From: Bdellovibrionota bacterium | GTDB lineage: Bacteria > Bdellovibrionota_C > UBA2361 > CAKMMH01 | DNA: 64,000 nucleotides | Assembly: GCA_050952645.1 (NCBI GenBank) | Contig: JBMNLI010000014.1 | Coordinates: 1 to 64,000, forward strand | Direction: 5' to 3' | Shown: piece by piece, positions 2,850 through 57,371 of the stretch | Numbering within the stretch: position 1 is the stretch's first letter | Layout: each line of letters opens with the position of its first letter | Program-made: the position numbers and the translations under genes | The notes under the pieces: generated by a model | Database searches by the model: none | The model's input: only the letters and a program-made list of their open reading frames with translations | What the model was told of the DNA's origin: nothing

Positions 2850-3884
2850 TTAGTTCTTTGCAGAGTTCTTCTCTAAATTATCAAACATCTCGCATTCGTA
2901 TTTGATCACTTTTCTTAAGCCTTCTTCCATGGATACGGTAGGCTCCCAGCCATATTTTTCTTTTGCAAGAGAGTTATCGCATAAAGAATATTTGTTAATT
3001 TCTCGATTTAATATTTCTTCTTTTATAGGATAAGCACCAGAATAAAGTTCGGGGTATTTTTCCCAGTAATGAGTATCGGATGCATAATTAGCTTTAATGT
3101 TTTTCCCCATGATTTTTTGAGCAAGCTCGTAGATTTCATTTACAGAATAATTTTTATTTGATGAAACATTTATAGCATCAAAGCCTTTTGAGTCTTTAAC
3201 TAAAATCGCTAACTCGATTAAATCATCGACGTATATATAATCACGTCTTTGCTCACCATTAGAGTGAAAGATAGGAGTTCTGTCGTAATAAAGTTCGCGT
3301 ATCATATATGCGACAAAAGGTGGTTGTTTTCTTAAACAATCGATATGAGGGCCATAAACATTAGCAAACCTTAAACAAGTTATATTCATACCATAAGTTT
3401 TACAATACGACTCAGCGAATCGCTCCGCACAATACTTAGTATTAGGATATATTAAAGTAGGAACTTTAAAATTATTTTCAAACGTTGGAAACTCAGTTTC
3501 GTTTTCATACATAGCATTCGTGCTGGCTTGAATGATTTTTTTTACGCCATACAATCTAGCATTTTCAAGAATATTTACAAAACCAGTAAGATTCACATCG
3601 ATAGCCTCAGTAGGGTTTAATTGACAGTCTGGAAGCGGAGCGATGCCTGCAATATTATATATATAATCGGGTTTATGTTCTTTTAATAAGTTAGCTATTC
3701 CCACTTTGTCGCGTATATCCATGTTAATAATTTTATCTCTAAAATCGCAATCGGGGAAAATTAAATTATCTTCTTGACCATACGAAAAATTATCTATTAA
3801 AATAACATTCTCTTTGTTCTTCCATAATCTATAAGCTAATTGAGAGCCTATAAATCCAGCAGCTCCTGTAATAAGAATATTCAT
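2850..3884 (-). CDS. NAD-dependent sugar epimerase/dehydratase (extended SDR)
   Basis: ITGAAGFIGS Rossmann motif, YxxxK (YPNTK), RFANVYGP, RDYIYVDD. Confidence 0.92.
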   Translation of the reverse strand: MNILITGAAGFIGSQLAYRLWKNKENVILIDNFSYGQEDNLIFPDCDFRDKIINMDIRDKVGIANLLKEHKPDYIYNIAGIAPLPDCQLNPTEAIDVNLTGFVNILENARLYGVKKIIQASTNAMYENETEFPTFENNFKVPTLIYPNTKYCAERFAESYCKTYGMNITCLRFANVYGPHIDCLRKQPPFVAYMIRELYYDRTPIFHSNGEQRRDYIYVDDLIELAILVKDSKGFDAINVSSNKNYSVNEIYELAQKIMGKNIKANYASDTHYWEKYPELYSGAYPIKEEILNREINKYSLCDNSLAKEKYGWEPTVSMEEGLRKVIKYECEMFDNLEKNSAKN

Positions 3885-4627
3885 AAAACTTTTTCTCCTC
3901 TTTTTATTTTTAAACTATTTTTAAAAATTCTTATACTTTGTTTTATTTTTGATTTCCACCCGAAATTCCAAGAAGATGCACCTTTTTTTCTTTTTGCTAA
4001 ATTAACACTAAAACGACGACATAAAAACTTTTGTCTTTTAGCCTCTTTATAAACGTATAATTCTAGTGAAAAATCATTTGGTAAAGCTTCTACATCTTTA
4101 ATAAGTGATTTATCGAAAACTACTGGTATGGCACCTATATCAAAAAGTAGGCTTTTAAACAAAATAGTATTAAATAGAGATTGTCCATAAGTAAAGAAAT
4201 AATCTATAAAACTTCTATTTTTTCTTAGCCCTTTTAAGAAAAGCTTTTTATCTCCCTTAGAGTTAGTTTTATAGTCGATTATATAGTCAAAAAACTGCTC
4301 TAAAGCAAGGGGGGCGATTTGCATATCGGCGTGTATCCACCCTATGTATTCTCCTAAAGAGGCTTTTATTCCTTGTGCGATGCCAAAGCCGTAGCCTTTA
4401 TTTTTTTCTACATATACGACTTTAATATCCTGAAACTTATTTTCGATATTTTTTTTAAAGTATTCCTTACTATTATCTAGCGAGCCATTTTCTACGAGTA
4501 TATATTCTAAATCGCCTGTTCCTTTATATTTTTCTTTGCATTTTTCTTGGAGAGGCCTAATTTTTTGTATAAGATTATCGATGTTTTTTTCTTCGTTATA
4601 ACAAGGAATAATAATAGAAAATTTCAT
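3881..4627 (-). CDS. Glycosyltransferase family 2 (polyprenyl-phosphate glycosyltransferase-like)
   Basis: SIIIPCYNEE, ENGSLD, NKGYG, HADMQ and R..G.SSW motifs. Confidence 0.9.
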   Translation of the reverse strand: MKFSIIIPCYNEEKNIDNLIQKIRPLQEKCKEKYKGTGDLEYILVENGSLDNSKEYFKKNIENKFQDIKVVYVEKNKGYGFGIAQGIKASLGEYIGWIHADMQIAPLALEQFFDYIIDYKTNSKGDKKLFLKGLRKNRSFIDYFFTYGQSLFNTILFKSLLFDIGAIPVVFDKSLIKDVEALPNDFSLELYVYKEAKRQKFLCRRFSVNLAKRKKGASSWNFGWKSKIKQSIRIFKNSLKIKRGEKVL

Positions 4628-5765: not shown

Positions 5766-7616
5766 TTATTTATCTGATTTTAAATAATAAATTTTATAAG
5801 AGTCGTCATAGCTTGATACAAAAACATCAAAATAGCTAGACTTATCAAATTTTTCATAAAGCTCTTTGTTTAGCAATACGTATTTTATATTATGTCTATT
5901 TAAAAATCTTTTTATCTTTTTTATTCCTGTGTTTTTGTCGAACATTTTTATAGTGCGTTTTATACCCTTATCCCATTCTACTAATCTTCCCATATCGGAG
6001 GGAAGCACTTTTCTCGAGGAAAAAGTGTTCCTATAAGATAGCAATTGAAACCAAGCAGTTTTATCGCCATCTGTCGGATGCCCTACGAACATTTCGTTTT
6101 TTTTAGTTTTTCTTTCAAATCTTTTAGCTAACCTAAAAAATTCTTTTCCTACCGCATTAGTTAAATACTCTTTAGAATTTATGATTTCAATTCTTCCATT
6201 ATAACGATTCCAAATTTTCTTATAAGAAGTATAGCTAAGAAGCGTTATTGAAATTACTAAAAGAAGAATAATGTTTGAACTTAAAATTTTTAGATACTCG
6301 TTTTTATGGCAAAATAATATTAGTGATAAAAAAGCCGCAATACATAGAAAAGTGATAAAGTATCTATCGCTTGTTTGTAAAAATATTAAAATTACAAGAG
6401 CTATAAATAAAAATTTTACGTACTTAACATTATAACCTTTATATAGATTTATAAAAAAGTATACCATTAAATAAGGATATATTATTAAATTAAATGGCAA
6501 TACGTTTGAGAAGCATATAGTTAAGAATATAGAAATAGCGATAAGCCATTCTTTACTTTCTAACCAATTTATAATCGTTCTTAAACACCAAATTATAGAA
6601 ATAATGGCTATATACCTAAAATATTTTGTTATATACATCGTTGCGACTATTGGGCAAACACGCACAGATGTAGTTATATACGCTACAAATAATACTAGAA
6701 GCCAAGAAATTATAAATAGGCTTGATAGTATGAAAAAGTTTTTACATTTTTTTCTATCTAAATAATATAGAGTTTGAAGTCTTAAAATAGCAGCAAATAA
6801 AATGAGTGAAAAATATTTTGCTTTGTATAAAAGACGCCAAGCTTGTGGAAAAATATGGTGAGAAACTCTACTAATATAAATATTTTTAAAATCTTGCACA
6901 GATATAGTTCCGCTAGAACCCATAATTCCTAGCATAGCAGAGACTAATAAGATGGTAATAAAGATAGGAAATCCAATTTTTATTTTTGAAAATATTTTTT
7001 TTATTGAAAAATTTTTATTTATAATGGTATCGTAAAGTAATAAGGTACAAATCGTAGTAGCACCCCAAATCCCCTCATGGATATGAAATAGCGTGGCAAA
7101 AGAAAGGAAAATAAAAGCTAAGTTCCATCTTTTTTTAGTTCCCACAACTAGCGAAAGCGCAAGCATTGAAAAGGCAAAGCCTCCTCCTAGCCCTATCGAG
7201 GGAATCTCGAATGAACCCCAACCTGGGTAGTGAGAGTTAATGCTAAATGCGATAAAAACGCTAAAAATTATAGACGCTGAGACGCAGTATCTTTTAGTAA
7301 AGCTAAATGCGATATTTACGCAAGCAAAAGCTAAAATAATAGCACTAAAATAGATAAGAATTAAAGTAGCGCTAGTCCAATTTCCCCCGTTTAATTTCAT
7401 AATTGAGCTTACTAACATATTCATAAAAAAACGTGGCGAAAAGACGCTTTGTGATACTGCAATATTGTTAGCAAAAATACTGCTATCGTACATATTTATT
7501 TGCTCTAATGCATAAACGGCATTATTAGAATTTAATGAGGAAGGTAATTTCCATATAAATAATGAAAGGACACAAAAAAAAGAAAATAAATAATTGTATC
7601 TTATAAATAATTTCAT
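5766..7616 (-). CDS. Multi-pass membrane protein, putative GT-C-like glycosyltransferase
   Basis: Many TM segments and a C-terminal periplasmic domain ending IKYVLL. Real start is probably ATG 7616 (RBS AGGGAGA at 7624-7630); the ORF-track GTG at 7685 lies inside a MITE terminal repeat. Confidence 0.55.
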   Translation of the reverse strand: MKLFIRYNYLFSFFCVLSLFIWKLPSSLNSNNAVYALEQINMYDSSIFANNIAVSQSVFSPRFFMNMLVSSIMKLNGGNWTSATLILIYFSAIILAFACVNIAFSFTKRYCVSASIIFSVFIAFSINSHYPGWGSFEIPSIGLGGGFAFSMLALSLVVGTKKRWNLAFIFLSFATLFHIHEGIWGATTICTLLLYDTIINKNFSIKKIFSKIKIGFPIFITILLVSAMLGIMGSSGTISVQDFKNIYISRVSHHIFPQAWRLLYKAKYFSLILFAAILRLQTLYYLDRKKCKNFFILSSLFIISWLLVLFVAYITTSVRVCPIVATMYITKYFRYIAIISIIWCLRTIINWLESKEWLIAISIFLTICFSNVLPFNLIIYPYLMVYFFINLYKGYNVKYVKFLFIALVILIFLQTSDRYFITFLCIAAFLSLILFCHKNEYLKILSSNIILLLVISITLLSYTSYKKIWNRYNGRIEIINSKEYLTNAVGKEFFRLAKRFERKTKKNEMFVGHPTDGDKTAWFQLLSYRNTFSSRKVLPSDMGRLVEWDKGIKRTIKMFDKNTGIKKIKRFLNRHNIKYVLLNKELYEKFDKSSYFDVFVSSYDDSYKIYYLKSDK

Positions 7617-7675
7617 AAAAATTTCTCCCTTTGTGTAAACTAAAAAAGCAGAGCGTGTGAGTGTGTCATATTTTA

Positions 7676-7916
7676 GGCTCTTCACGTTTTAAGCTAACCC
7701 ACCTAAAACAATTTTTGTTCTTCACTTTTAAAGGTGATTTTAGACCTTAAAATTAGTATCACTCACCTCGACGAAGCCCAAAAGAAAATTGACTTTAAAG
7801 AAATTTGCATAAAATAAATTACTTTAAGTATAGTTGTAATTTTTCTTTAAACTATAGATAGTTTTCTATAAAAGCCAATTTTCTTTTAAGCTAACCCACC
7901 TAAAACGTGAAGAACC
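7676..7916. mobile_element. ISL3-like MITE, composite 241-bp copy
   Basis: Ends GGCTCTTCACGTTTTA...TAAAACGTGAAGAACC, with 8-bp direct repeat ATATTTTA at 7668-7675 and 7917-7924. Confidence 0.9.
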
Positions 7917-8426: not shown

Positions 8427-10115
8427 CTAAAATTTTTTTTGTAATTTTTTATTTATTTGAGCAGCTTTTAATCTTACCTTATCAGCATCTATATCAAACG
8501 CATTTAATATAGTTTTTTGTCTTTTGCTTACTGCATAGCTCAGCTGATATAAATCCTTACTCCCTCTTACCATTTCAATTTTTTCAAGTTCTTTTAATGC
8601 GGCAGGAACATTCATATAGTTTGGCTTTTTTGTTAGCTTAGAAAGTTCTTCATTAAGTAGAATATAAATGCGATTGCGAATTATAAGTGCTATAAACTCT
8701 ATAAAAATTTTAGCAGATACTGCCTGAGATGAATGAACTCTCATACTTTTTGAGCCTAAAAAAGTCTTATCAATAGCAAAAAGTTTCTCAGTTGCGTCTC
8801 TACCCTTGTAAAGTATTATAGCTTCTTTAGCACTCATTTCTTCCGAACTAACAAGACAAAAATACCCACATAAATTAAGAGCCTTTTGAATTTCATCTGC
8901 TCTCTCTTCTACTTTTCTTAACTTTCCTTGATTGTCATAACTTAAATCAAAAAATTGCTTATACGTTTGTCCAAACTTTGTATCTTTGCCAATATGGTTT
9001 TTTAAAAATTGTTCAAACTCCTCTAATTTAATTTCTAGTTGCTCCCTCTCAAATGCTTGCTTTTCCGCACTAAAATAAACATGAAAATAACGCTCCTTAC
9101 TATCATCATCATATAATTTTGATTTCACTGTAGTGCCATATACCTTGTATAAGCGAATACTACAGTCTCTTTTAGACTCAAATGTATTCCTGTTTTCTTC
9201 TACTAATTTAGAAACTAAAGCCTTACACCCTTTTACCATCAATAAAAAAGAAAAACCACTATTATCCATATATTGAATATTATATTTACTAAAATAACCA
9301 CGGTCTAAAATAAATCCTATCTTTTTATATCCATACTCTATAACCTTATCTGCCATATGAGTAAATTGAGAAACGTCTGTAATAGAACCAGGATACTCTT
9401 CGTAAAATAACGGAACTCTATTCGTTTGATCAAAGGCAATGGATAAATTAAATACTGGGAATCCTTTTTCGTCTTTCGCTTTACCAAACTCTACTAATTC
9501 AACATCACCTGCTTGACAGTTCTTATTAGTCGAATCATATGAAACGTAAACCATTTGATTGCGATCTTTTCCCTTGTTCCAATCGTCAAGAAAGTTAATT
9601 ATCTGCTCTTTGCTAACAGAAGAAAGAAAACGACTTATGGTAGAATCACTATAGATGCGCATACCTTTTGTAAAGAGTGGATGAGAAAAGGCGTAGTCTG
9701 GATAATACTGACTGACATTCTCTTCATTTACAATAAAATAACTCGCTAAATCAAGTATAAGTTCACTACGTTCACCAAAATGTTTTTTTAGTAAAAAAGG
9801 CAAATTAAATTCATTTGCTACTTTTTCAATCACCAAGTGGGGACCTATACGAAGACAACAACTGCGTGAAGCGTCTGAAAATTTCTCGGGCATAGGGGCA
9901 TCTGGAAAATAATTACTATAATTGTCATTAGGGTACATAATATCATCTCTACCATCAACTAATTTTCCAATAACGCTACGCTTTGGATTAGTATACTGTT
10001 TCTCTTTATTATAAGTGCGATCGTATTCAAAAAGCACATATTTTGCTTCCCCTTTTTCTCTTATAATTATTTTATTTCTTTGCTCTGGTAATGGAACTGT
10101 TCGATTGTAATTCAT
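8427..10115 (-). CDS. IS1634-family DDE transposase
   Basis: 562 aa with YDSTN, FGKAKD, YPGSITD, LDRGYFS and YKGRDATEKLF (Y..R...E..F) motifs; RBS AAGGAGG at 10120-10126. Confidence 0.92.
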   Translation of the reverse strand: MNYNRTVPLPEQRNKIIIREKGEAKYVLFEYDRTYNKEKQYTNPKRSVIGKLVDGRDDIMYPNDNYSNYFPDAPMPEKFSDASRSCCLRIGPHLVIEKVANEFNLPFLLKKHFGERSELILDLASYFIVNEENVSQYYPDYAFSHPLFTKGMRIYSDSTISRFLSSVSKEQIINFLDDWNKGKDRNQMVYVSYDSTNKNCQAGDVELVEFGKAKDEKGFPVFNLSIAFDQTNRVPLFYEEYPGSITDVSQFTHMADKVIEYGYKKIGFILDRGYFSKYNIQYMDNSGFSFLLMVKGCKALVSKLVEENRNTFESKRDCSIRLYKVYGTTVKSKLYDDDSKERYFHVYFSAEKQAFEREQLEIKLEEFEQFLKNHIGKDTKFGQTYKQFFDLSYDNQGKLRKVEERADEIQKALNLCGYFCLVSSEEMSAKEAIILYKGRDATEKLFAIDKTFLGSKSMRVHSSQAVSAKIFIEFIALIIRNRIYILLNEELSKLTKKPNYMNVPAALKELEKIEMVRGSKDLYQLSYAVSKRQKTILNAFDIDADKVRLKAAQINKKLQKKF

Positions 10116-17395: not shown

Positions 17396-18212
17396 TAAAA
17401 GTCCACTCGAAATCTTTATACTCGTTATACAGCTCAGTAAATCCTGTAAAAGGATTGATTAGCAATGTATATTCACCTCCTCTATCATTATAAAGATGTA
17501 TCACGCTAAAATCCGTAAATCCTTTAGGGCTAAAAACTATTTGTGCCGATTCTAAATCTTGAGGTGTATATTTAGTATCGAATATCATGATATCTTTTAT
17601 CTTTAAAAAACTAGGAGCATCTTTTAGCTCTGATAGCGATGGAAAATTAGGGGCAGGTAAGAAAGAACGTCCCTCTGTAATTCCTTCTTCTCTTTCTCCT
17701 ACCCTTTCTTTTTCTCTTTCTTTTTTTTCTCTTTTCTTTCTAGTGCCGTAAAAGCCTTTTGCTTTGTAATCGCCTTTAGGGGTATATTTGCTTTTTTTAG
17801 TCGTATCTCGTTTAATTTCTCTAGGATAAGCGATTTGTTTATAATAAAAATCTCTTAAATCGTTAGTAGTGTTAGTATTAGCTAAAGTATCGTTTAAGTT
17901 TTCATCTGAAACCGTTGTATCTGAAGTGGAATTTAAGGCACTATTAAAAACGCCTACATTATAGCTAAAATTTCCTTCATCGGTTATATTAAAATTTAGC
18001 ACGTATTCACTCTGGTCTGCGATTGCTTGATTATATAAAAAACTTATAGTCTCTCTTATTTGTCTAATGCAACCCTCTTCTTTAAATCTATTTGCAGTCC
18101 CGGTTCTATTACCTACTAAAGCAAAAAGACTTGCCATAAGCAAGAGCACTATGGCAAGTTCTATAAGTGTAAAAGCTTTCTGTTTTTTATTATTAAAATT
18201 AAAAACACTCAT
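17382..18212 (-). CDS. gspH: T2SS minor pseudopilin H-like with charged internal insert
   Basis: AFTLIEL prepilin motif; IVFSPKG...INPFTG C-terminal pattern. Confidence 0.7.
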   Translation of the reverse strand: MSVFNFNNKKQKAFTLIELAIVLLLMASLFALVGNRTGTANRFKEEGCIRQIRETISFLYNQAIADQSEYVLNFNITDEGNFSYNVGVFNSALNSTSDTTVSDENLNDTLANTNTTNDLRDFYYKQIAYPREIKRDTTKKSKYTPKGDYKAKGFYGTRKKREKKEREKERVGEREEGITEGRSFLPAPNFPSLSELKDAPSFLKIKDIMIFDTKYTPQDLESAQIVFSPKGFTDFSVIHLYNDRGGEYTLLINPFTGFTELYNEYKDFEWTFNDNK

Positions 18213-18273
18213 TTTTTTTTATTTTGTCTTTTTTATTTTATCTTTTAGCCTTTTACGTATATTTTTTAATTTT

Positions 18274-18681
18274 TTAAGGCCCCGTGATTTCTTGGTCGCT
18301 ATCTACTCCCGAGCCACCCGGCTTTTTATCTGCGCCTAATGTTTTTATGGTATAGGAGTTTCCAGACGATTGGTATACGAATGGATTATCCCACGCATCT
18401 AAGACATCTTCTTTATCGGCCATCGGTATGCAGTTGCTCGCCTTACTTGGGCAACCCGTTAAATCGTTTAGTGAGCTAGGGAGGCTATTATATTCTAGTT
18501 GATATTCTGCTATGGTTGATTTTAATTTAGACATTTTTAAGTTGTTTAATTTAGCTTTAGCTTTTTCACCTTGAGAGAAAAGCCCTCCAGTTAAAAAAGA
18601 GAATAATATTGAAAGGATAACTAGAACGATAATAATTTCGATAAGAGTTAATCCTTTTTGATTATGTAGATTATTTTTCAT
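18274..18681 (-). CDS. gspG: T2SS major pseudopilin G
   Basis: GLTLIEI prepilin motif; DAWDNPFVY and LGADKKPGGSGVDSD. Confidence 0.88.
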   Translation of the reverse strand: MKNNLHNQKGLTLIEIIIVLVILSILFSFLTGGLFSQGEKAKAKLNNLKMSKLKSTIAEYQLEYNSLPSSLNDLTGCPSKASNCIPMADKEDVLDAWDNPFVYQSSGNSYTIKTLGADKKPGGSGVDSDQEITGP

Positions 18682-19085
18682 GATTTTAATTCCTATATAA
18701 AAACGAAAATAAATAATATAAACAAAAAATATTTTTTTAAAGATTATATATGCTAATTAAAAAATATAACAGAGAGAGAAAGGTTTTTATTAGGAAAAAT
18801 TTTAATTGAATTTCGTTTTTTACTCGTCTTTTTAGATTTTGCTAAAAATTGTGAATACTGAAGGCGTAAGCTATATAAAAAAACTTATAAAATATGTAAG
18901 TAAGATAAGGTTAATATTAAATTTCTAGGTATGTCTTAGAGCAACGTCCGTTTTTATTTTAGTCCCTATAAAAGCTAAATTTTAATCTTGTAAGTTTTAG
19001 GTTGGTGATTATATAATATTTTTACTTAAGTTTTTTTATCACGATATATTTTTTATGTATGTAGTGTGTTTTTTTAGAAAAAGCA

Positions 19086-19249
19086 AATTGGCTTTTATAG
19101 AAAACTATCTATAGTTTAAAGAAAAATTACAACTATATTTAAAGTAATTTATTTTATGCAAATTTCTTTAAAGTCAATTTTCTTTTGGGCTTCGTGGGGC
19201 GAGTGATACTAATTTTAAGGTCTTTAACCCACTTAAAACGTGAAGAGCC
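19086..19249. mobile_element. ISL3-like MITE copy (left end unclear)
   Basis: 19086-19223 is a near-identical reverse complement of 7742-7881; ends CTTAAAACGTGAAGAGCC. Confidence 0.85.
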
Positions 19250-22200
19250 TTTTAATTCCTGGTATAAAATTAGATAATGATAGTATAAAGACTACTAAAC
19301 TCCCAGGGAGTTTGTGGAGAAAGGAAAAATATGTAGATTTTGTTCCCGTTGATAAAGAAAGTGAGACGATAAAACTTAGGACAATGAAGGGAGGGAAGAT
19401 TTTTATTAAGTCTGGTATAATATTAGATATATTTAAGTTGTTAGATGATGAGCCTCTCATAGCAGATTCGTTTCATGTAGGTTTTTTTAGGACTGCGCAA
19501 ATTTTCGATACATCTAGTTCACCTAAGGGGAGTTCGTCTAGTAGTAGTCCATCATCTAGCAGTTCATCGTCTAGTAGTAGCAGTAGTTTATCTAGTAGCA
19601 GTGCATCTATTAGTAGCAGCTCATCTCTAAGTTCTTCTAGCAGTAGCAGTTTAAGTAGTTCTAGCTCATCTTTAAGTTCTAGTTCTTCTTCTAGTAGTAA
19701 GAACAGTTCGTCTAGTTCATTAAGTAGTAGTAGTTTTAGTAGTTCTAGCTCATCTTTAAGTTCACCTTCAAGTTCATCATCTAGTAGCAAAAGCTCTAGC
19801 AAGAGTAGTTCGCCAAGTTCTTCTAGTTCTGTAAGTTCAAACTTATCGCCAAGTAGTAGCAGTTTGTCTAGTTCGTCTAGTAGTTCTAGTTCTTCATCTA
19901 GTAGTAGTTCTTCTAGTTTTCTAAGTTCAAGCTTATCGCCTAGTAGTAGTAGTTCATCAAGCTCTTCTAGTAAGAGTTCATCTTCAAACAAGAGTTCTTC
20001 ACCAAGTAGTAGCTCATCAAGCTCTTCTAGTAAGAGTTCATCTTCAAGCAAGAGTTCTTCACCAAGTAGTAGCTCATCTAGCGAGAGTTCCTCGTCTAGT
20101 AGTAGCAGCAGTGCATCAACAAGTAGTTTTAGCAGTTCTTTAAGTTCAAGTTCATCACCAAGTATTAGCAGTTCGAGTTCAAGTAAAAGTAGCTTATCAC
20201 GTTCATCTAGTAAAAGCAGTTCTTCTAGTTTTTTAAGTTCTAGTTCTTCGCTAAGTAGCAGTTCGAGGAGTTCATTAAGTAGTAGTAGTTTTAGTAAGAG
20301 TTCTTTATCTAGCTTTTCTAGTTCTCTAAGTTCAAGCTTATCACCTAGTAGTAGTTCATCAAGTAAGAGTTCATCATCATTTAGCAAAAGCAGTTCGAGC
20401 AAGAGTAGTTCGCCAAGTAGCAGTTCTTCTAGTTCTTTAAGTAGTAAGAGTAGCTTGCCAAGTGCATCAAGTAAAAGCAGTTTGTCGCCTAGTAGTAGTT
20501 CTTCTTCTAGTAATTTAAGTAGCTTGCCACCAGAGCCTCCTATTACGTCGCCTAGCACTAGTTCTTATTCTAGTAGTTCGTCTAGTAGTAGTAAGAAGCC
20601 ACCACTACCGCCAGTAAATCCATCTAGTAGTAGTTTTTCTAGTGAAAGTGAAGATTCCACTTCGAGCACGCCTCAAGAAGTTTGCCCTCCAAATACGGAA
20701 GTTTGTTTTGAGGGGTTATGTTGTCCGATAGGGACTTGTCGCTTTACCATTGTCAATGGTTCTGTTACTGCAAGGTGGTGTGATACTCAAAGTTCTTCAG
20801 CATCATCTTTACCGCCAGTAATTATAAGTGAAAGTTTTTCTTCTTTCTCGAGTGAAAGCTCATCAGAAAGTGAAAGCTCTTTTAGTTTTTCTTCAGCGTG
20901 TCCTCCTTGGAGGCAGTGTGATTATCTTTGTTGTGAAGAGGGGGAGGAGTGTAAAACGTATTTACAAGAAAATGCAGACGGTGAGATTATCCCGATTCCT
21001 AGTTGTGAGAAAGTGAGTAAAAGCTCGTCTAGTTTTTCTTCTGAGACGTTTAGCAGTGAAAGTTTATCTAGTTCTTCTTTAGCGTGTCCTTCTGATAGGC
21101 AGTGTGGGCATTTATGTTGCGAGGATAGCGAAACGTGTAGTATAGAAGTACAAGAAGAAGGCGAGGATATTTATATCGTATATAATTGTATAAAAGAGAG
21201 TGTAAGTTCTAGTGAGAGTTCTTTAGAAAGTGTAGCTTCGAGCGAAAGCTTAGAAAGTAGTAGTTTAAGCAATTCTTCTAGCTCTTTAAGTTCTAGTTCG
21301 AGTAAGAGTAGCTCACCTAGTTCATCTAGTTTAAGTAGCTCTTCTTCTAGTTCATCATCTCCAAGTAGTTCAAGCAGTTCTTCTAGCTCGTCATCTAGTT
21401 TTAGTAGTAGCAGTTCTTCTTCATGCAGTGAAGGTACAGAAATGTGTGGAGACGTTTGTTGCGACCCAAATAAATGTAATTCTGATACTTGCTGCCCTAA
21501 TGAAGATCCTGTGCCGTGTGGAGATAAACCGTGTTGTGATAATGGTAAATGCGCTAATCCTGATGAAAGTCTCTGTTGCCAAGATTGGCAAGTGCCTTTT
21601 AATGGGGGATGTGAAGAGCCGTGCAATGATTGTTGCGATTCAAGAGAGATATCTATTATTAGAAGAGATGCTTATGGAAATCAAATAACTCGTTGTTGTC
21701 CACAGGGTTCAACTTATACCAATGCTCAAGGTAATTTATGGTGTGATAACCCAGCTAAGTGTCAAAATAATGGAGAAACTATGAGACAAATAGGTTTTAT
21801 ACAAGAAAGCCATTCTCCACATAAGGTTTATATGTGTTGTAAGGAAGATTTATGGTGGCAAGATCTTAGTTCGGGATATTGGGTATGTGGAGCTAGTAGT
21901 AGCAGTTCATCAAGCTCTTCTAGTAAGAGTTCATCTTCAAACAAGAGTTCTTCACCAAGTAGTAGCTCATCAAGCTCTTCTAGTAAGAGTTCATCTTCAA
22001 GCAAGAGTTCTTCACCAAGTAGTAGCTCATCTAGCGAGAGTTCCTCGTCTAGTAGTAGCAGCAGTGCATCAACAAGTAGTTTTAGCAGTTCTTTAAGTTC
22101 AAGTTCATCACCAAGTATTAGCAGTTCGAGTTCAAGTAAAAGTAGCACATCTAGTGGAAGTTATAATAGTTATGAAGCGGAATCTGTAAGTAGTGTATCT

Positions 22201-22560
22201 AGTAAAAGTTTAGAAAGCCAAGCGAGTTGCGAAAGTGGTTCTTATGCTTGTGGAACTAATTGCTGTTCTAGTGAGCAAGATTGTTATAATGATAGAAGTG
22301 AATGTTGCGATGGTAAGTTTGTAAATGGGACGTGTTGCCCAGCAGAGAGAGTTTACGATGGTTCTAAATGTTGTGATGAGGGTAAAGTTGCTTATACATC
22401 ATACTTAGGAAGTGGTTGCTGTAAAATAGATCATGTATATACGCATGATATTTATGAATATTGTTGTCGTGAACCGTTATGTGGTGGTGAATGTTGTGGC
22501 GAACTAAGAGAATGTAATAATGGCGAATGTGTAGACAAAGAAGGATACTCGGCTAGTTAA
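19240..22560 (+). CDS. Large Ser-rich / Cys-rich (CC-motif) mucin-like protein
   Basis: 1106-codon open frame; poly-Ser tracts encoded by mixed TCN/AGY codons alternate with Cx5-6Cx3-4CCx4-5C modules. Confidence 0.85.
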   Translation: MKSLLIPGIKLDNDSIKTTKLPGSLWRKEKYVDFVPVDKESETIKLRTMKGGKIFIKSGIILDIFKLLDDEPLIADSFHVGFFRTAQIFDTSSSPKGSSSSSSPSSSSSSSSSSSSLSSSSASISSSSSLSSSSSSSLSSSSSSLSSSSSSSSKNSSSSSLSSSSFSSSSSSLSSPSSSSSSSKSSSKSSSPSSSSSVSSNLSPSSSSLSSSSSSSSSSSSSSSSSFLSSSLSPSSSSSSSSSSKSSSSNKSSSPSSSSSSSSSKSSSSSKSSSPSSSSSSESSSSSSSSSASTSSFSSSLSSSSSPSISSSSSSKSSLSRSSSKSSSSSFLSSSSSLSSSSRSSLSSSSFSKSSLSSFSSSLSSSLSPSSSSSSKSSSSFSKSSSSKSSSPSSSSSSSLSSKSSLPSASSKSSLSPSSSSSSSNLSSLPPEPPITSPSTSSYSSSSSSSSKKPPLPPVNPSSSSFSSESEDSTSSTPQEVCPPNTEVCFEGLCCPIGTCRFTIVNGSVTARWCDTQSSSASSLPPVIISESFSSFSSESSSESESSFSFSSACPPWRQCDYLCCEEGEECKTYLQENADGEIIPIPSCEKVSKSSSSFSSETFSSESLSSSSLACPSDRQCGHLCCEDSETCSIEVQEEGEDIYIVYNCIKESVSSSESSLESVASSESLESSSLSNSSSSLSSSSSKSSSPSSSSLSSSSSSSSSPSSSSSSSSSSSSFSSSSSSSCSEGTEMCGDVCCDPNKCNSDTCCPNEDPVPCGDKPCCDNGKCANPDESLCCQDWQVPFNGGCEEPCNDCCDSREISIIRRDAYGNQITRCCPQGSTYTNAQGNLWCDNPAKCQNNGETMRQIGFIQESHSPHKVYMCCKEDLWWQDLSSGYWVCGASSSSSSSSSSKSSSSNKSSSPSSSSSSSSSKSSSSSKSSSPSSSSSSESSSSSSSSSASTSSFSSSLSSSSSPSISSSSSSKSSTSSGSYNSYEAESVSSVSSKSLESQASCESGSYACGTNCCSSEQDCYNDRSECCDGKFVNGTCCPAERVYDGSKCCDEGKVAYTSYLGSGCCKIDHVYTHDIYEYCCREPLCGGECCGELRECNNGECVDKEGYSAS
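19951..20193 (+). repeat. 243-bp exact direct repeat, copy 1
   Basis: Identical by eye to 21904-22146. Confidence 0.9.
21904..22146 (+). repeat. 243-bp exact direct repeat, copy 2
   Basis: Identical by eye to 19951-20193. Confidence 0.9.
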
Positions 22561-22801
22561 GGCTCTCAAAATGTTTCGTTTTCGAGTGGCTTTTCAAATT
22601 GAAGCTAAAATCTTTTAAAATCAAAAAAACGGCTTTATAATTATTTCTTGCTCAAGAAATATGATTATGTTAATTTATGAATGTTGGTTTTGTGTTTTTA
22701 AAAAGAACGCAAATTTTTTATAAAGAATTATAAAGGATAATTTTTCCTTTATATTCTTTATGGTTTTGATCTCTCCTAGAAAATAGGAGAAGGAGGTTGT
22801 A

Positions 22802-23651
22802 ATGAACTTTAAAACGCTTATGCCCACTATTGTTTTCTCGTTGGTGGGCGTTTTGTAGCTATTGTTTGCCTGTTATGCAGCAGAGTTGTGCAGGACAGGA
22901 TAAAGGTTCGACTAACAATCAGCAAATTATCCTTGCTGAAAAAGCACAATCTAAAGCTTTCCCATTAAATGGGACTGCGGAAGAGAAATTAGCGTATTTT
23001 GACGAACTCAATTTGGAGCTTTTTGAAAGTACACTTAGCACAAAAGTGGCAAAACGCTCCCTTGATGTGGACATGTCTTTGTCCAAAAAGCTTAAATGGC
23101 TTAAAAAATATACGACAAATTATAAAGCTAAAGTGGACGACATTCTACTTCTTGGTGGAAAGAGTGTCTACTTTAAGTGGTTGGGTGAAAATTTAAATTC
23201 GTACGACATTAAAAACTTAGAAGAGTCTATCGATGGGATGCAACTTAAGTTGTCTAAAGCAACTGAGGAAGAGTTTTTAATGGATCGTGAGAATTTAGCA
23301 CTTGTAGCTACTGCAAAGTTTGCTTGCATAAGTTCTTTGCAACGTTTTAAAGACATAAGAGAAAACAAAATCGTTACAAAAAGCGATGCTGTTTTAAAAG
23401 CAAATAACTGAAGCAGAGAGAGAAATTGATAAAATTTTAGCATGTTCTGAAAGTATTTGTCAGCAGGCGATTCATTATCAGAAGGATTTGCTGAAGATCG
23501 TAGAATCGGAATTGCAAAATTATGATATAGTTTTGAGCTTTGAGAGAAATAAATTCTATTTCGAATCAAGAAATGAAAGAGATAGAAAGTTAGCTGAACT
23601 GCAAGTACAAGCTAAGGCTCAAGCCAAAACTGAAGCCAAGCAACAGCGTTA
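22802..23651 (+). CDS. Putative secreted alpha-helical protein with two apparent frameshifts
   Basis: AGGAGG RBS then ATG 22802 (MNFKTLMPTIVFSLV). Removing one base near 22846 joins the 22830 ORF, and removing one near 23395 extends it (KQITEAEREIDKIL...AKQQR) to TAA 23651, followed by a terminator. Confidence 0.65.
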
Positions 23652-23745: not shown

Positions 23746-24928
23746 TTATATTATCGTAGGGACGGAATAGTCGATGCCATCTACGTCGAAGCCAAAAAGA
23801 TTTATAAAATCCTTTCTTACTCCCTCGATATCCGTTATTTCAGATATATTTTCCGATGTTATCTTATCCCAAGTAGCTGAAATCTTTTCTTGAATATCTT
23901 TGTTTAGCTCTAGATTGTCAACTCTTATTCGTCCCTCATCGTCTAGCTTGCAATCGCCTAAAATATCATTGTCGCTATAAAGGCGCACTATCTGCTCTAT
24001 ACAGTCTTCATGCGTGCCTGCCTCTTTCATAAATCGATATAAAAGACTTAAATATAAAGGAACTACTGGGATAGCTGCTGATGCTTGCGTCACGAGTGCC
24101 TTATTTACTGAAATGTAAGATTTGCCTCCAATGTCTTTTATCAATTTATCGATATCTTTAACGGTATTAGTTAAATGCTCTTTAGCTTTTCCAATCGTGC
24201 CATCGTTGTAAATATCCCAAGTAAGTTTAGGCCCGATATAAGAGTAAGCAATGGTTCTAAAATTAGGAGCTAGCAGATCTTCTTTTTTTTAAAAACTCTA
24301 TCCACCTAAGCCAATCTTCTCCTCCCATAACTTTTATAGTTCCATTTATTTCATCTTGAGTAGCAGGCTCTAATGAGATTTCTTTTACCTCTCCTTCGTA
24401 TATATTAACAGTTTTTGAGTTAAATTGCTTGCCTATAGGTTTTAATGTAGATGCATAAGTCTTACCCGTAGTAGGGTCAGTTCTTCTAGGAGCAGCTAGG
24501 CTATAGAGTAAAAATTCTAGCTTCCCAAATTTTTTTCTTATCTCATCGATAATAATTTTTTTATTTTCATCTGAAAAAGCATCCATATTATGAAAGTTAT
24601 AATATACATCTTCATTTTTAAGGTTTTCCTTTAGCGCCTCTACCATATAATACCCTGCCGAAGCAGTCTTTTCTCCCGATGGTTCTTTTTCAAACCCAAC
24701 GCTTATCACATCAGCCTTTAGTCCAAAGCTTAGCACTATGCTAGATGAAATCCCATAGCCAGTTGAACCTCCAAGGACTAATGCATTTTTAAATTTATTT
24801 TTTGTAAAACTCTTCGATTTTACTAGGTTTATCTGATTCTCAATTATTTTTTTACATCCACCACTATGAGCCGTGGTGCATAAAAATCCCCTTATCTTAG
24901 GAACTATTATTCCAGTTTCTCGTTGCAT
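23746..24928 (-). CDS. fabV: Enoyl-ACP/trans-2-enoyl-CoA reductase FabV, split at an A8 run (24283-24290)
   Basis: PKIRGFLCTTAH, GGSTGYG, YSLAAPRR, VMGGEDW; after the shift AYSYIGP...GTIGKAK and KALVTQASAAIP. Confidence 0.92.
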
Positions 24929-25802: not shown

Positions 25803-25883
25803 GTTAGAAAAATTGTTTTGGGTTCCGTGGGGTGAGTGATACTAATTTTAAGGTCTAAAACCTACCTTAAAACGTGAAGAGCC
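25782..25883. mobile_element. ISL3-like MITE, 102-bp copy
   Basis: GGTTCTTCACGTTTT...AAAACGTGAAGAGCC with 8-bp direct repeat ATTTTTTC (25774-25781, 25884-25891). Confidence 0.92.
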
Positions 25884-25967
25884 ATTTTTTCAAAGATAAA
25901 AAATTGGAAAACAAAGATAAACAAAACAAATAAAATAAACAAAATAAAAAAAATAAAAAGGATAAAA

Positions 25968-37215: not shown

Positions 37216-38442
37216 ATGCCTATTTTTGAATATAATGCGATATCATCAACTACTGGAAGAAAGATAAAAGGCAATATAGATGCTGAGAATATAAGAATTG
37301 CTAGGCAAAAATTAAAATCTCAAGGTGTTTACGTTACGGATATTCGTGAGGGCTTAGAAAAAAATGCTACCACGAAAAAAGGCGAAATAAATTTTTTAAA
37401 AAATAGAGTTTCTCTTAAAGATTTATCTATTATTACATCGCAGCTTACTACTCTTATCGTTGCGGGGCTTCCTCTAGTTAATGCGCTTCAAGCGCTTGCT
37501 GAGCAAACGGAGTCGAGAAATTTAAGAAGAATTCTAACCGATGTTAGAGAGAGTGTAGAAGAGGGGAACGCCTTTCATAAGTCGCTTGCAAATTTTCCAA
37601 AAGCTTTTCCGAAGTTATACGTAAATATGATTGAAGCTGGGGAGGCTTCAGGAAAATTAGATTCTACTTTAGAAAATTTATCAAAGTATTTAGAAGAGCA
37701 ACTCGCTTTAAGAAGACAAGTAATTTCATCTCTATTTTATCCTATATTGATGCTAGTTTTCTGCTTGTTAGTAGTCGTTGGGCTTCTTGCTTTTGTAGTT
37801 CCAAGTATAGTAGAAATATTTGAAAAGCAAGGCGGAACGCTCCCTCTTCCTACGAGAATAGTAGTAGGTATATCGGATATTATTATAAATTATTGGTGGG
37901 TATTTATTTTAGCGATTATAGGAATGGTAGTAGGTTTTAAAAAATATATACAAACGGAGCAAGGAAAATTTAATATAGATTTAATGCTTATAAGGCTTCC
38001 TTTTTTTGGAAAATTGTATACGAAAGTTGCAACGGCACGTGTTGCAAGCACTATCGGAACTCTGTTCGCAGGAGGTGTGCCACTACTTACTTGTCTAGAT
38101 ATCGGAAAAAATATAGTAAGCAATGTCCATTTTAGAACATCTCTAGAGCAAGCGAGAGATGGCGTAGAAAAAGGAAAGAGTCTTTCTAGTGAGCTTGGGA
38201 AATCTGGGCTTTTCCCACCACTTTTATCGCATATGATAGCTGTAGGTGAAAAAAGCGGACAATTAGAACAGATGTTAGCACGTGCCGCTAAAGCCTACGA
38301 AGATGAGGTAAAAAATGCCCTTTCTGCCATTACATCAATTATCGAACCTTTAATGATCATATGTTTAGGCGGAATAGTTTTTGCAATAGTGATATCAATT
38401 TTAATGCCTATGGTTGGAATAATCGATTTGATTCAAGGTTAG
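37216..38442 (+). CDS. gspF: T2SS inner membrane platform protein F
   Basis: AGLPL, GEASGKLD, GEKSGQLE and IEPLMI motifs. Confidence 0.95.
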   Translation: MPIFEYNAISSTTGRKIKGNIDAENIRIARQKLKSQGVYVTDIREGLEKNATTKKGEINFLKNRVSLKDLSIITSQLTTLIVAGLPLVNALQALAEQTESRNLRRILTDVRESVEEGNAFHKSLANFPKAFPKLYVNMIEAGEASGKLDSTLENLSKYLEEQLALRRQVISSLFYPILMLVFCLLVVVGLLAFVVPSIVEIFEKQGGTLPLPTRIVVGISDIIINYWWVFILAIIGMVVGFKKYIQTEQGKFNIDLMLIRLPFFGKLYTKVATARVASTIGTLFAGGVPLLTCLDIGKNIVSNVHFRTSLEQARDGVEKGKSLSSELGKSGLFPPLLSHMIAVGEKSGQLEQMLARAAKAYEDEVKNALSAITSIIEPLMIICLGGIVFAIVISILMPMVGIIDLIQG

Positions 38443-55764: not shown

Positions 55765-55814
55765 AATTTTTAATTTATATTTTTTTCATTACTTTAGTGT
55801 GTTATATTTTTTTT

Positions 55815-57371
55815 ATGAATAGTAATCTTGTTAAGAAAATTTTTAAAATATTAGAAAAATCTTTATATATTTTACTTATCTTGGTGTATACATACTTTTT
55901 TGTGTTAAGATTAGGTTTTGAGTTTAGATTTCCCATAGCTTACGATTCCCCAGATTTTCAGGCTATAGGGCGTGGCATAGTAAATGGTTTTTATCCATTT
56001 AGAGATTTTTGGGAAGTTAAACCGATTGGCATTTATTTATTACATTATATTTCTTATAGTTTAACGGATACTTTAATAATTTCTCATGTTTTTTTAATAT
56101 TTTGTTATATATCATTATTCCTTTTCCCAATTATTTTTTTTCTTATAAAAGTTCCTAGAAAAAAAAGAACTTTATCTCTTTTCGTTATTTCAGTTGCATT
56201 AGGCTCATTAGTAGCGGTATATGCTGATTTAAGAGGAGGAAGATTGCTTCCAGATATTTTTGGAATATTTTTTTCTTGTCTCTATATTTTATTTATAAAC
56301 TCATCTTTTTTTATAAAGAAACGAAAATTATCATATTTTATCGCTGGGTTTTTAATGTGCATCGCTTGCAATTTTAAGGAACCATATTTATTTTCTATAA
56401 TTGCATCAAGTTTAATTTTTTCAAACTCATTTAAAGATTTTTTAAGAAAATTTTTTATCCCATTTTTAGTAGCATGCGTATTAGGTGGAGTTTTTTTATT
56501 ATCGTTAGGTTTATTAAAGGATTATTTTGAATATTTATATTATATGGTTTTTTTTCTTAGTGTAGCAGATGGTAATAATATATTTATGCGAACATTTATA
56601 AATATAAATCATATTTTTAATAATTTAAATTTAGCTTTTAAATTTTCAGGTTTTGTATTTTATTTGTTATTTCTTTTCCCATTTATAGAGGTTACGCAAA
56701 AATATAAAAATATAGCAAATAGGAAAAAATATATTTTAATAAGATTTTTAGTTTTAATTTTTGCTCTATATCTTACTGTAATGGCAGTTCGTTCTAGTGG
56801 CTATCACTACTCTCAGCATAATAGTTTTGCAGTTCCATTTATTTTTGCATTAAGTTTATATTTTATAAAGAATGTAATAAATTTTAAAAATGATTTTCGT
56901 AAAATATATATTTTCGTTTTTAATATTATATTAACTATTACTCTGTTTTTTTTACCTATAAAAGGAATCGTAATAGAAGATTGGAGTGATATGTTTTTAT
57001 GCAAAAATATAAAAGATGAAGCAGAATATATAGATAATGTATTAGACAAATTAGATGAGAAGACTTACGTTTTTTTAGGTTCTTGTGGGCATCATATTTT
57101 GGGTTTTACTAGACATTCCCCTAAAGGGAAATATGCATTTCAAGTTCGAAATTGGAATGCCGAAAAGCTTCCAAACTTTTATGAAAGTATAGTCGATAAT
57201 GTGAAAAATGCTAAATTAGTCGTTTTTGATAGCTACTTTAATAAAAAACTTCAATATCAAATAGAGCCAATTTTAAATAATGCTTTTACTACCGACATCC
57301 CTAATTCACTTAAAGGTATTAAAAAACCTTATTCTAGATATAAAATATATTTTAGTAAGAAAATATCTTAA
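55815..57371 (+). CDS. GT-C fold (ArnT/PMT-like) membrane glycosyltransferase
   Basis: DSPDFQAIG..I..G.YPFRDFWEVKPIG loop after TM1, many TMs and a C-terminal periplasmic domain. Confidence 0.7.
   Translation: MNSNLVKKIFKILEKSLYILLILVYTYFFVLRLGFEFRFPIAYDSPDFQAIGRGIVNGFYPFRDFWEVKPIGIYLLHYISYSLTDTLIISHVFLIFCYISLFLFPIIFFLIKVPRKKRTLSLFVISVALGSLVAVYADLRGGRLLPDIFGIFFSCLYILFINSSFFIKKRKLSYFIAGFLMCIACNFKEPYLFSIIASSLIFSNSFKDFLRKFFIPFLVACVLGGVFLLSLGLLKDYFEYLYYMVFFLSVADGNNIFMRTFININHIFNNLNLAFKFSGFVFYLLFLFPFIEVTQKYKNIANRKKYILIRFLVLIFALYLTVMAVRSSGYHYSQHNSFAVPFIFALSLYFIKNVINFKNDFRKIYIFVFNIILTITLFFLPIKGIVIEDWSDMFLCKNIKDEAEYIDNVLDKLDEKTYVFLGSCGHHILGFTRHSPKGKYAFQVRNWNAEKLPNFYESIVDNVKNAKLVVFDSYFNKKLQYQIEPILNNAFTTDIPNSLKGIKKPYSRYKIYFSKKIS

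Follow-up and report, generated by a model that had tools for sequence, protein, structure and literature searches.

Can an open reading frame (ORF) rich in serine and cysteine, standing back to back with a secretion operon, be the gene of a secreted coat protein? The question is raised by positions 19240-22560 (forward strand) of a 64,000-nt stretch of Bdellovibrionota DNA, the window, where 1106 codons specify 490 Ser and 62 Cys with 17 CC pairs. An earlier note, made from the letters alone, had taken this ORF for an O-glycosylated, mucin-like surface coat or adhesin, possibly exported by the type II secretion system (T2SS) encoded beside it. Comparison with the rest of the genome (metagenome-assembled, from an uncultured bacterium; 1.95 Mb on 17 contigs, given C numbers here; 93.75% complete) leads to a different answer. 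The ORF is very probably a headless copy of a TadE-family gene; we class it as a pseudogene that only chance ties to the T2SS. Beyond this, our preferred though still tentative reading is that it is what remains, on the 3′ side, of a TadE-type pilin gene that belongs to a recombining family in which broken copies are occasionally reused.

The composition first described holds. The near-continuous Ser run of more than 300 residues is present as a first tract of 338 residues that is 78% Ser, and the four Cys motifs quoted in the earlier note lie at 20899, 21085, 21424 and 22228. All six Ser codons are indeed used (AGT 209, TCT 112, TCA 72, AGC 67, TCG 27 and TCC 3), TCN and AGY alternate, with a change between them in 164 of 331 neighbouring Ser-Ser pairs, and the same codon is repeated at most four times in a row. 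Considering this mixture and the 21-235 stops in each of the remaining five frames of the region, the tract is no nucleotide microsatellite but has been shaped as protein. The number of Cys is even in all five modules (Table 1). The 3.3-kb open frame, a Ser/Thr/Pro-rich tract of mucin type, a weak promoter-like match and the GT-C-type glycosyltransferase and Wzy_C genes of the genome speak for a stand-alone, translated, O-glycosylated coat, exported by the T2SS and tied to the gsp and glycosyltransferase genes. The beginning of the frame and its surroundings make this reading very improbable.

Position 19240, taken before as the gene start, is a GTG inside the right terminal inverted repeat of a miniature inverted-repeat transposable element (MITE), with no Shine-Dalgarno-like run before it. 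This 222-bp element is bounded by terminal inverted repeats, duplicates 8 bp of its target, has 22 full-length copies in the genome and occupies an identical site (codon ~162) in four family copies, the window copy included. About 685 bp, comprising the first ~160 codons and with them the prepilin signal, are deleted from the window copy at a joint of 6-nt microhomology, and no hydrophobic signal is found in the ORF (over 19 residues, its highest Kyte-Doolittle mean is 1.1, whereas the intact copies reach 2.0 and 3.0). At the other end, a TAA at 22558-22560 closes the frame 13 codons ahead of the stop in the copy with the same tail on C10. The promoter-like match, 10 of 12 positions at 18988-19017, has survived; it is weak, with 8 such sites against 4.6 ± 2.5 in shuffles. 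A T2SS cargo must first reach the periplasm, and since the ORF has neither signal nor membrane segment there is no route to it; the window copy is probably neither translated nor exported. A Hint-like N-terminus was also ruled out, this part being the end of the pilin head. As for mobile elements elsewhere, further MITE pieces and a DDE transposase gene occur in the window at 7719-7887, 8427-10115 and 25813-25888. The genome also holds ten near-identical group II intron copies with a reverse transcriptase gene (C6:23382-25276 and nine other places), of which nine lie inside a MITE or MITE variant, on either strand, as read from their flanks; one of these nine is inside a family copy.

The neighbouring operon fares similarly. 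The genes gspG, H, I and J are present as described (Pfam T2SSG, N_methyl and T2SSJ), and the divergent adjacency of the ORF to them is real, but an inversion has produced it. The T2SS operon has been split and inverted in part, with gspGHIJ 19.8 kb away from gspCDEF: gspF, followed by smc, is found at 37216-38442 and inverted with respect to gspG. We compared a same-genus relative (G001), a same-family relative (G003) and a further relative (G002; 92% complete, 130 contigs). The order gspC-D-E-F-G-H-I-J is contiguous in G002, the gspF and gspG contigs of G001 overlap by 141 nt, and those of G003 have no overlap of at least 20 nt, so that gspF-gspG contiguity is seen in two of three relatives. 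No family gene lies between gspF and gspG in G001 or G002; the proposed T2SS export lacks both a signal in the ORF and a conserved gsp linkage. One inversion, from just upstream of the window gene to just after gspF, would explain the arrangement. In the window the family gene is convergent with fabV, and smc comes after gspF; in G001, fabV faces a Cys/Thr cassette in convergent orientation, and smc stands divergent from a full head, on two unbridged contigs. Taken together with a single inversion, this layout makes it probable that the family's ancestral fabV-smc site is the one in the window.

The proposed tie to the glycosyltransferases is likewise rejected, as unspecific. A GT2 gene is present at 3884-4627, as noted before, whereas the two genes described as GT-C-like, 5766-7685 and 55797-57371, have about nine transmembrane segments but no Pfam match at 1e-3 and are not among the eight PMT_2 matches of the genome. 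They lie 11.6 and 33 kb from the ORF, which puts the window's candidates 11-33 kb away from it, and the PMT_2 matches, like the Wzy_C genes, are spread over the genome. A PMT_2-type GT-C gene directly beside a Tad locus (C9:56356-58353) is a more plausible candidate than those of the window for glycosylating the pilins.

What the ORF has lost can be seen in its intact relatives. The copy at C17:323835-327158, with 99.7% identity to window positions 19250-21911, begins with a basic leader, the putative cleavage motif SRG/SILTE (Gly at −1, Glu at +5) and a hydrophobic predicted helix (residues 8-58). A second intact gene, a divergent paralogue that adjoins fliG (C12:32.2-36.1 kb), has the Gly and the helix but not the Glu at +5, as in those genes of the genome that are TadG-like by size and position. 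The G001 and G003 orthologues pass the Pfam model TadE (PF07811) with 27 and 23.7 bits at a cut-off of 22.9, the intact heads align to these TadE-positive orthologues, and TadE clusters top the Atlas ranking of the G001 head (0.93). Judged by these matches, the export signal of the family is a TadE-type prepilin peptide and not the mark of a T2SS cargo. The genome contains two Tad-like loci, at C12:108-115 kb and C9:47-56 kb (TadA-type ATPase by Pfam; Flp-like and TadB/C-like labels by inspection), and one A24 prepilin peptidase. The spacer is Thr/Pro-rich rather than Ser-rich in the relatives, and thus it is the low-complexity spacer that is conserved, not its residue. The check for Dsb genes suggested by the earlier note recovered a VKOR-DsbA fusion gene; DsbB was not found in the four genomes searched, where VKOR was found instead. 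The idea of a disulfide-bonded, stalked surface adhesin therefore fits the intact members, with their even Cys counts, invariant Cys and VKOR-DsbA, but fails for the headless window ORF. From these sequences the family is predicted to consist of a TadE-type pilin, a low-complexity stalk and a disulfide head, a Tad minor-pilin adhesin. Another large TadE protein that stands alone (832 aa, 23 Cys; C3:49197-51695) was not matched by the family searches, and two Cys-rich proteins with low-complexity repeats lie outside the family at C17:142077-144704 and C17:250694-253051, one of them with beta-propeller-like repeats and Ser/Thr-Pro tracts.

The paralogue count, likewise suggested before, gave 15 loci and small remnants, together about 39 kb or 2% of the genome. 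Two of the 15 are intact and 13 broken, every one at the 5′ end; a frameshift at codon 19 is common to five copies and another at codon 180 to three. Among 91 genomes of the order, a head profile gave full-length matches in the window's genome, G001 and G003 only, all of one family, while G016 and a second place in G003 match the TadE motif only. The profile found no family head in G002, and exact-peptide head scans of genome and metagenome contigs returned no match. Neighbours of the nine family regions listed are lipoprotein, small secreted-protein and housekeeping genes, with no other pilins. Two unnamed families accompany the pilin genes, small secreted-looking Cys-containing proteins (~8 copies) and lipoproteins (~9 copies); neither has a Pfam match, and one homologue of the lipoprotein family stands at the fabV site of G001. 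A polymorphic-toxin/immunity reading of the downstream genes was dropped, as they have no Pfam match and their C-termini look structural (no direct test made).

Three copy types make up the mosaic of the window copy, with in-frame junctions that fall within Ser codons. Compared with the intact C17 copy, its first 300 nt contain seven differences and the 2362 that follow contain one (Fisher p 1.6e-6); the head end agrees with other broken copies, and a third copy type accounts for the tail and the downstream gene. The 3′ joints are in frame, at Ser-codon microhomologies of 19 and 8 nt that flank a 254-nt repeat of the first tract. Such a structure might also be an assembly chimera, the assembler or polisher having carried the near-identical 2.4-kb middle over from the intact gene. 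Contigs of sequencing runs (X1, possibly from the source sample, X2, X4 and X6) were compared with the window, which is represented in runs from digesters, bioreactors, landfill and wastewater; no RNA run is among those listed, which has no bearing on expression. Among the pieces listed, none spans the deletion joint (near 19085) or either of the 3′ joints (21911 and 22146). At 21073, where the window copy has a private base, X6 and all three runs listed with full depth there show the other base. The assembly moreover contains at least one probable homopolymer error, fabV being the one gene of 25 conserved controls that is split, at an A run. For this reason single homopolymer indels should be discounted, but not the shared lesions. 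On the other hand, an X1 contig runs through 17500-19001 without difference, 126 nt into family-type upstream DNA, an X6 contig, from 18612, enters it likewise, and X1 and X2 contigs cross the MITE-gene joint (29/30 and 105/30 nt per side, one short of the 31-nt rule). X2 and X4 have no cover at 18900-19064, which carries no weight. The summed depth of X1 over most of the gene is several-fold that of the flanks, as expected of a multi-copy family, and is not a copy number. The codon-180 frameshift is present in X1 and X2 as well (X6 is in frame there), and hence the family and its lesions are independent of the window locus. With the joints in frame at microhomologies, we regard a chimera as quite improbable. 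The split in fabV (23746-24928) itself is caused by one extra A near 24290, probably an assembly error, where one X6 contig is gapped.

Are the broken copies then debris, or are they at times put to use again? Plain birth and death would have the family expand and then be inactivated by the MITE, frameshifts and deletions, with recombination a side effect and no reuse. The abundance of mobile elements (22 full MITEs, 10 group II introns) is in line with it, as are lesions in the downstream genes and in 3 of 12 bodies, and the position of the window copy at an inversion breakpoint; its flanks also suggest that it received its middle from the intact copy rather than gave it. Yet all 13 broken copies are hit at the 5′ end, whereas 8 of the 12 bodies are fully open and that of the window is 99% open (the thirteenth copy, with almost no body, was omitted). 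Furthermore, a truncated cassette in a tandem unit is also present at the fabV site of G001, and the intact C17 copy itself is a patchwork of exact matches to broken copies, as seen in an exact-match map of the 15 loci. Congruent with exchange, 271 of 561 informative site pairs among seven heads are incompatible (permutation p 0.0002). Non-identical Cys modules have dN/dS of 0.05-0.77 and keep nearly all Cys. Two copies with the same head frameshift differ at 135 sites over 513 Cys-region codons, with dN/dS 0.30, 70 of 70 Cys kept and no stop against ~8 expected if neutral. Codon comparison thus indicates purifying selection on the Cys modules even behind broken heads, and we consider birth and death without reuse a serious but rather unlikely account.

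Occasional reuse in a recombining family, the reading we prefer, could work as follows. In an intact gene the prepilin signal would be cut by the A24 peptidase, and the head would take its place among the minor pilins of the Tad pilus, at the tip. The Ser tract, or Thr/Pro in the relatives, would hold the CC modules away from the cell; the modules, presumably disulfide-bonded after oxidation by VKOR-DsbA, may at their distal end bind prey, host or surface. Ordinary homologous recombination between copies, aided by the Ser tracts, would swap modules both ways, and broken copies would occasionally give an expressed gene a new tip, with the window copy as an occasional donor or recipient. Intact genes are indeed reached by swapping, but slowly: in a sister lineage, the fliG-linked paralogue is represented by 14 distinct alleles of full length (from 22 proteins listed in three clusters, partial ones omitted), which fall into three block-mosaic architectures, one switch being located in the Thr/Pro linker. 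A stronger form, where a Tad tip is diversified by cassettes, with Ser-codon stalks as in-frame crossover points and silent copies feeding new heads, is conceivable but doubtful. If true, a free-living predator or epibiont would possess a generator of diversity akin to pilE/pilS, serving prey or host range or escape from phages and not directed at the immune system of an animal. A dedicated one-way switch of the Neisseria pilE/pilS kind, with one expression locus, silent cassettes and frequent gene conversion, finds some backing on C17, where the one intact gene of its type is followed by three tandem, 5′-truncated open cassettes with a common start point. It is nonetheless improbable, as exchange seems bidirectional, the cassettes are broken in many different ways, the second paralogue has so few architectures, and no G-quadruplex (G4) lies near the intact gene; the single G3-run match in the whole genome is far from it, at C17:11286.

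Several observations weigh against a Tad tip pilin with reused cassettes. No switching event was seen. None of the family genes is inside a Tad locus, and no tadE/F/G-type cluster was found at the nine listed regions. Both intact heads of the window's genome are without Pfam or NCBIfam match, and the head model is weak (predicted local distance difference test score, pLDDT, 56), with no Foldseek match at 1e-3 and a best VIA Z of 3.9. The incompatibility test drops to p 0.047 once poorly aligned upstream columns are removed, and in two smaller sets p was 0.07 and 0.68. Selection on the bodies could predate the breaking of the heads, and the frameshifts in 3 of 12 bodies, the early stop of the window copy and its broken downstream gene are as in decay. 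Finally, only three architectures among 14 alleles suggest that shuffling of the second paralogue is slow in the sister lineage.

Table 1. Features of the window at and around the headless pilin gene copy.
Feature	Position	Strand	Remarks
gspG	18274..18681	-	at one breakpoint of the inversion splitting the gsp operon
Family-type upstream region	18875..19084	+	common to 5 other genome places (blastn); ends at 6-nt microhomology, deletion joint to MITE
Right ~170 bp of 222-bp MITE	19079..19249	+	right terminal inverted repeat 19232-19249 provides GTG at 19240
8-bp target-site duplication	19250..19257	+	insertion site same in C12:89290, C6:23218, C7:161441
Final third of TadE-like head	19250..19503	+	codons ~162-246 of intact copy; prepilin signal and first helix gone
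First Ser tract, predicted stalk	19501..20607	+	residues 88-456, 75% Ser
Segment identical to intact C17 copy bar one base	19550..21911	+	
Cys module 1, 6 Cys	20683..20781	+	
Cys module 2, 6 Cys	20899..21006	+	
Cys module 3, 6 Cys	21085..21189	+	
Second long Ser tract, 72% Ser	21205..21447	+	
Cys region 4, 24 Cys, CC ladder	21424..21888	+	model: short stacked beta-hairpins, mean pLDDT 63
254-nt, 99.6% copy of Ser tract 19940-20193	21893..22146	+	ends are two in-frame switch points
Tail of another copy type	22147..22602	+	common to C17:120.9k, C10:26.8k, C12:37.3k
Cys region 5, 20 Cys	22228-22530	+	within tail segment 22147..22602
Co-duplicated downstream gene, small secreted-looking protein	22802..23640 (end approximate)	+	two frameshifts; family of ~8 following these genes

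The Cys modules were searched for known folds. A profile search with them, also suggested by the earlier note, gave no Pfam or NCBIfam match, and neither did the whole ORF; a PDB profile search and an Rfam scan of the window returned nothing. Protein search with Cys region 725-890 had no match among 296 candidates of 608-1936 aa, and Atlas was uninformative (best 0.78). Fold searches with the model of Cys region 4 gave no clear match, the best being VIA Z 2.5 and Foldseek E 0.04 to the disulfide-rich Pfs25, at a root-mean-square deviation of 18. For such models, lack of a fold match, for the head as for Cys region 4, should be taken to show neither a new nor a different fold. The granulin likeness suggested earlier was not borne out, with no granulin row at E up to 5 in eight proteins and the 12-Cys spacing motif absent. 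With galaxin-like and granulin CC repeats the family shares a CC ladder, 8-19 residues apart, and predicted short beta-hairpins; it differs in having no granulin match or motif and only a sub-threshold Galaxin_repeat match (20.5 bits, cut-off 28) in one relative's allele.

Long Ser-rich spacers with folded binding domains are also found in Gram-positive serine-rich repeat proteins (SRRPs) and animal mucins, a works-like resemblance; the SRRP motifs LPxTG and KxYKxGKxW are absent in three of three proteins tested, a pilin head takes their place, the spacer is Thr/Pro in relatives, and Asp1 of the accessory Sec system has no match in the window's genome at its 93.75% completeness. The mosaic MAT fibres of Bdellovibrio (PMC10769870) are likewise a repertoire of surface adhesins, in the same phylum and with a proposed role in broad prey recognition. 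They are phage-like, trimeric and encoded by intact genes, and the abstract of that study mentions no pilin head, Ser stalk or CC modules. The Cys-rich myxobacterial PilY1 (PMC13190605) is a functional parallel. In the literature covered, with supplements and subscription journals outside it, we found no description of this pilin family. New here are the decapitation of the window copy, the inversion that accounts for gspG as its neighbour, the joints within Ser codons, the test for selection in broken copies and the mosaic alleles of a sister lineage.

Closest in design are the Tip pilins of Myxococcus and other predators (KilL/M/N, TadE/F/G; Herrou et al., PMC12075869); in Myxococcus, TadE/F/G-like minor pilins with variable disulfide-rich ends form interchangeable tips. 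Common to both are the prepilin signal, the N-terminal hydrophobic helix, C-terminal domains that are extended, variable and rich in predicted disulfides, and several interchangeable paralogues in a predatory-type lineage. The Kil Tips are encoded by four intact kilLMN clusters, whereas the genes described here lie outside the Tad loci, code for proteins of 1100-1300 aa that carry CC modules and a long tract of Ser or Thr/Pro, and are mostly broken and recombining; the likeness is one of design, not of sequence comparison. In Bdellovibrio, Tad is reported to be needed for prey invasion, tad genes to be dispersed, including a lone tadG, and Flp to be processed by PilD (preprint 10.64898/2026.07.08.737194), with which a single peptidase and unlinked pilin genes in the window's genome are in agreement. 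As Tad pili with their variable tips are decisive for the range of prey in Myxococcus and for entry into prey in Bdellovibrio, the family would represent a much larger tip design, built of pilin, long stalk and CC modules, with a candidate way to vary the tip. With Neisseria pilE/pilS (PMC4023411) it shares an intact pilin gene with partial copies and segmental exchange; it differs in a minor Tad-type rather than major type IVa pilin, in kilobase modules and in the absence of a nearby G4. If cassettes are indeed reused, variation of the cell surface by recombination would reach beyond pathogens to environmental bacteria of predatory type. Aggregated, the tests run suggest that the family is neither SRRP nor granulin, and by analogy it would work like a Tad tip adhesin repertoire that resembles pilE/pilS in layout.

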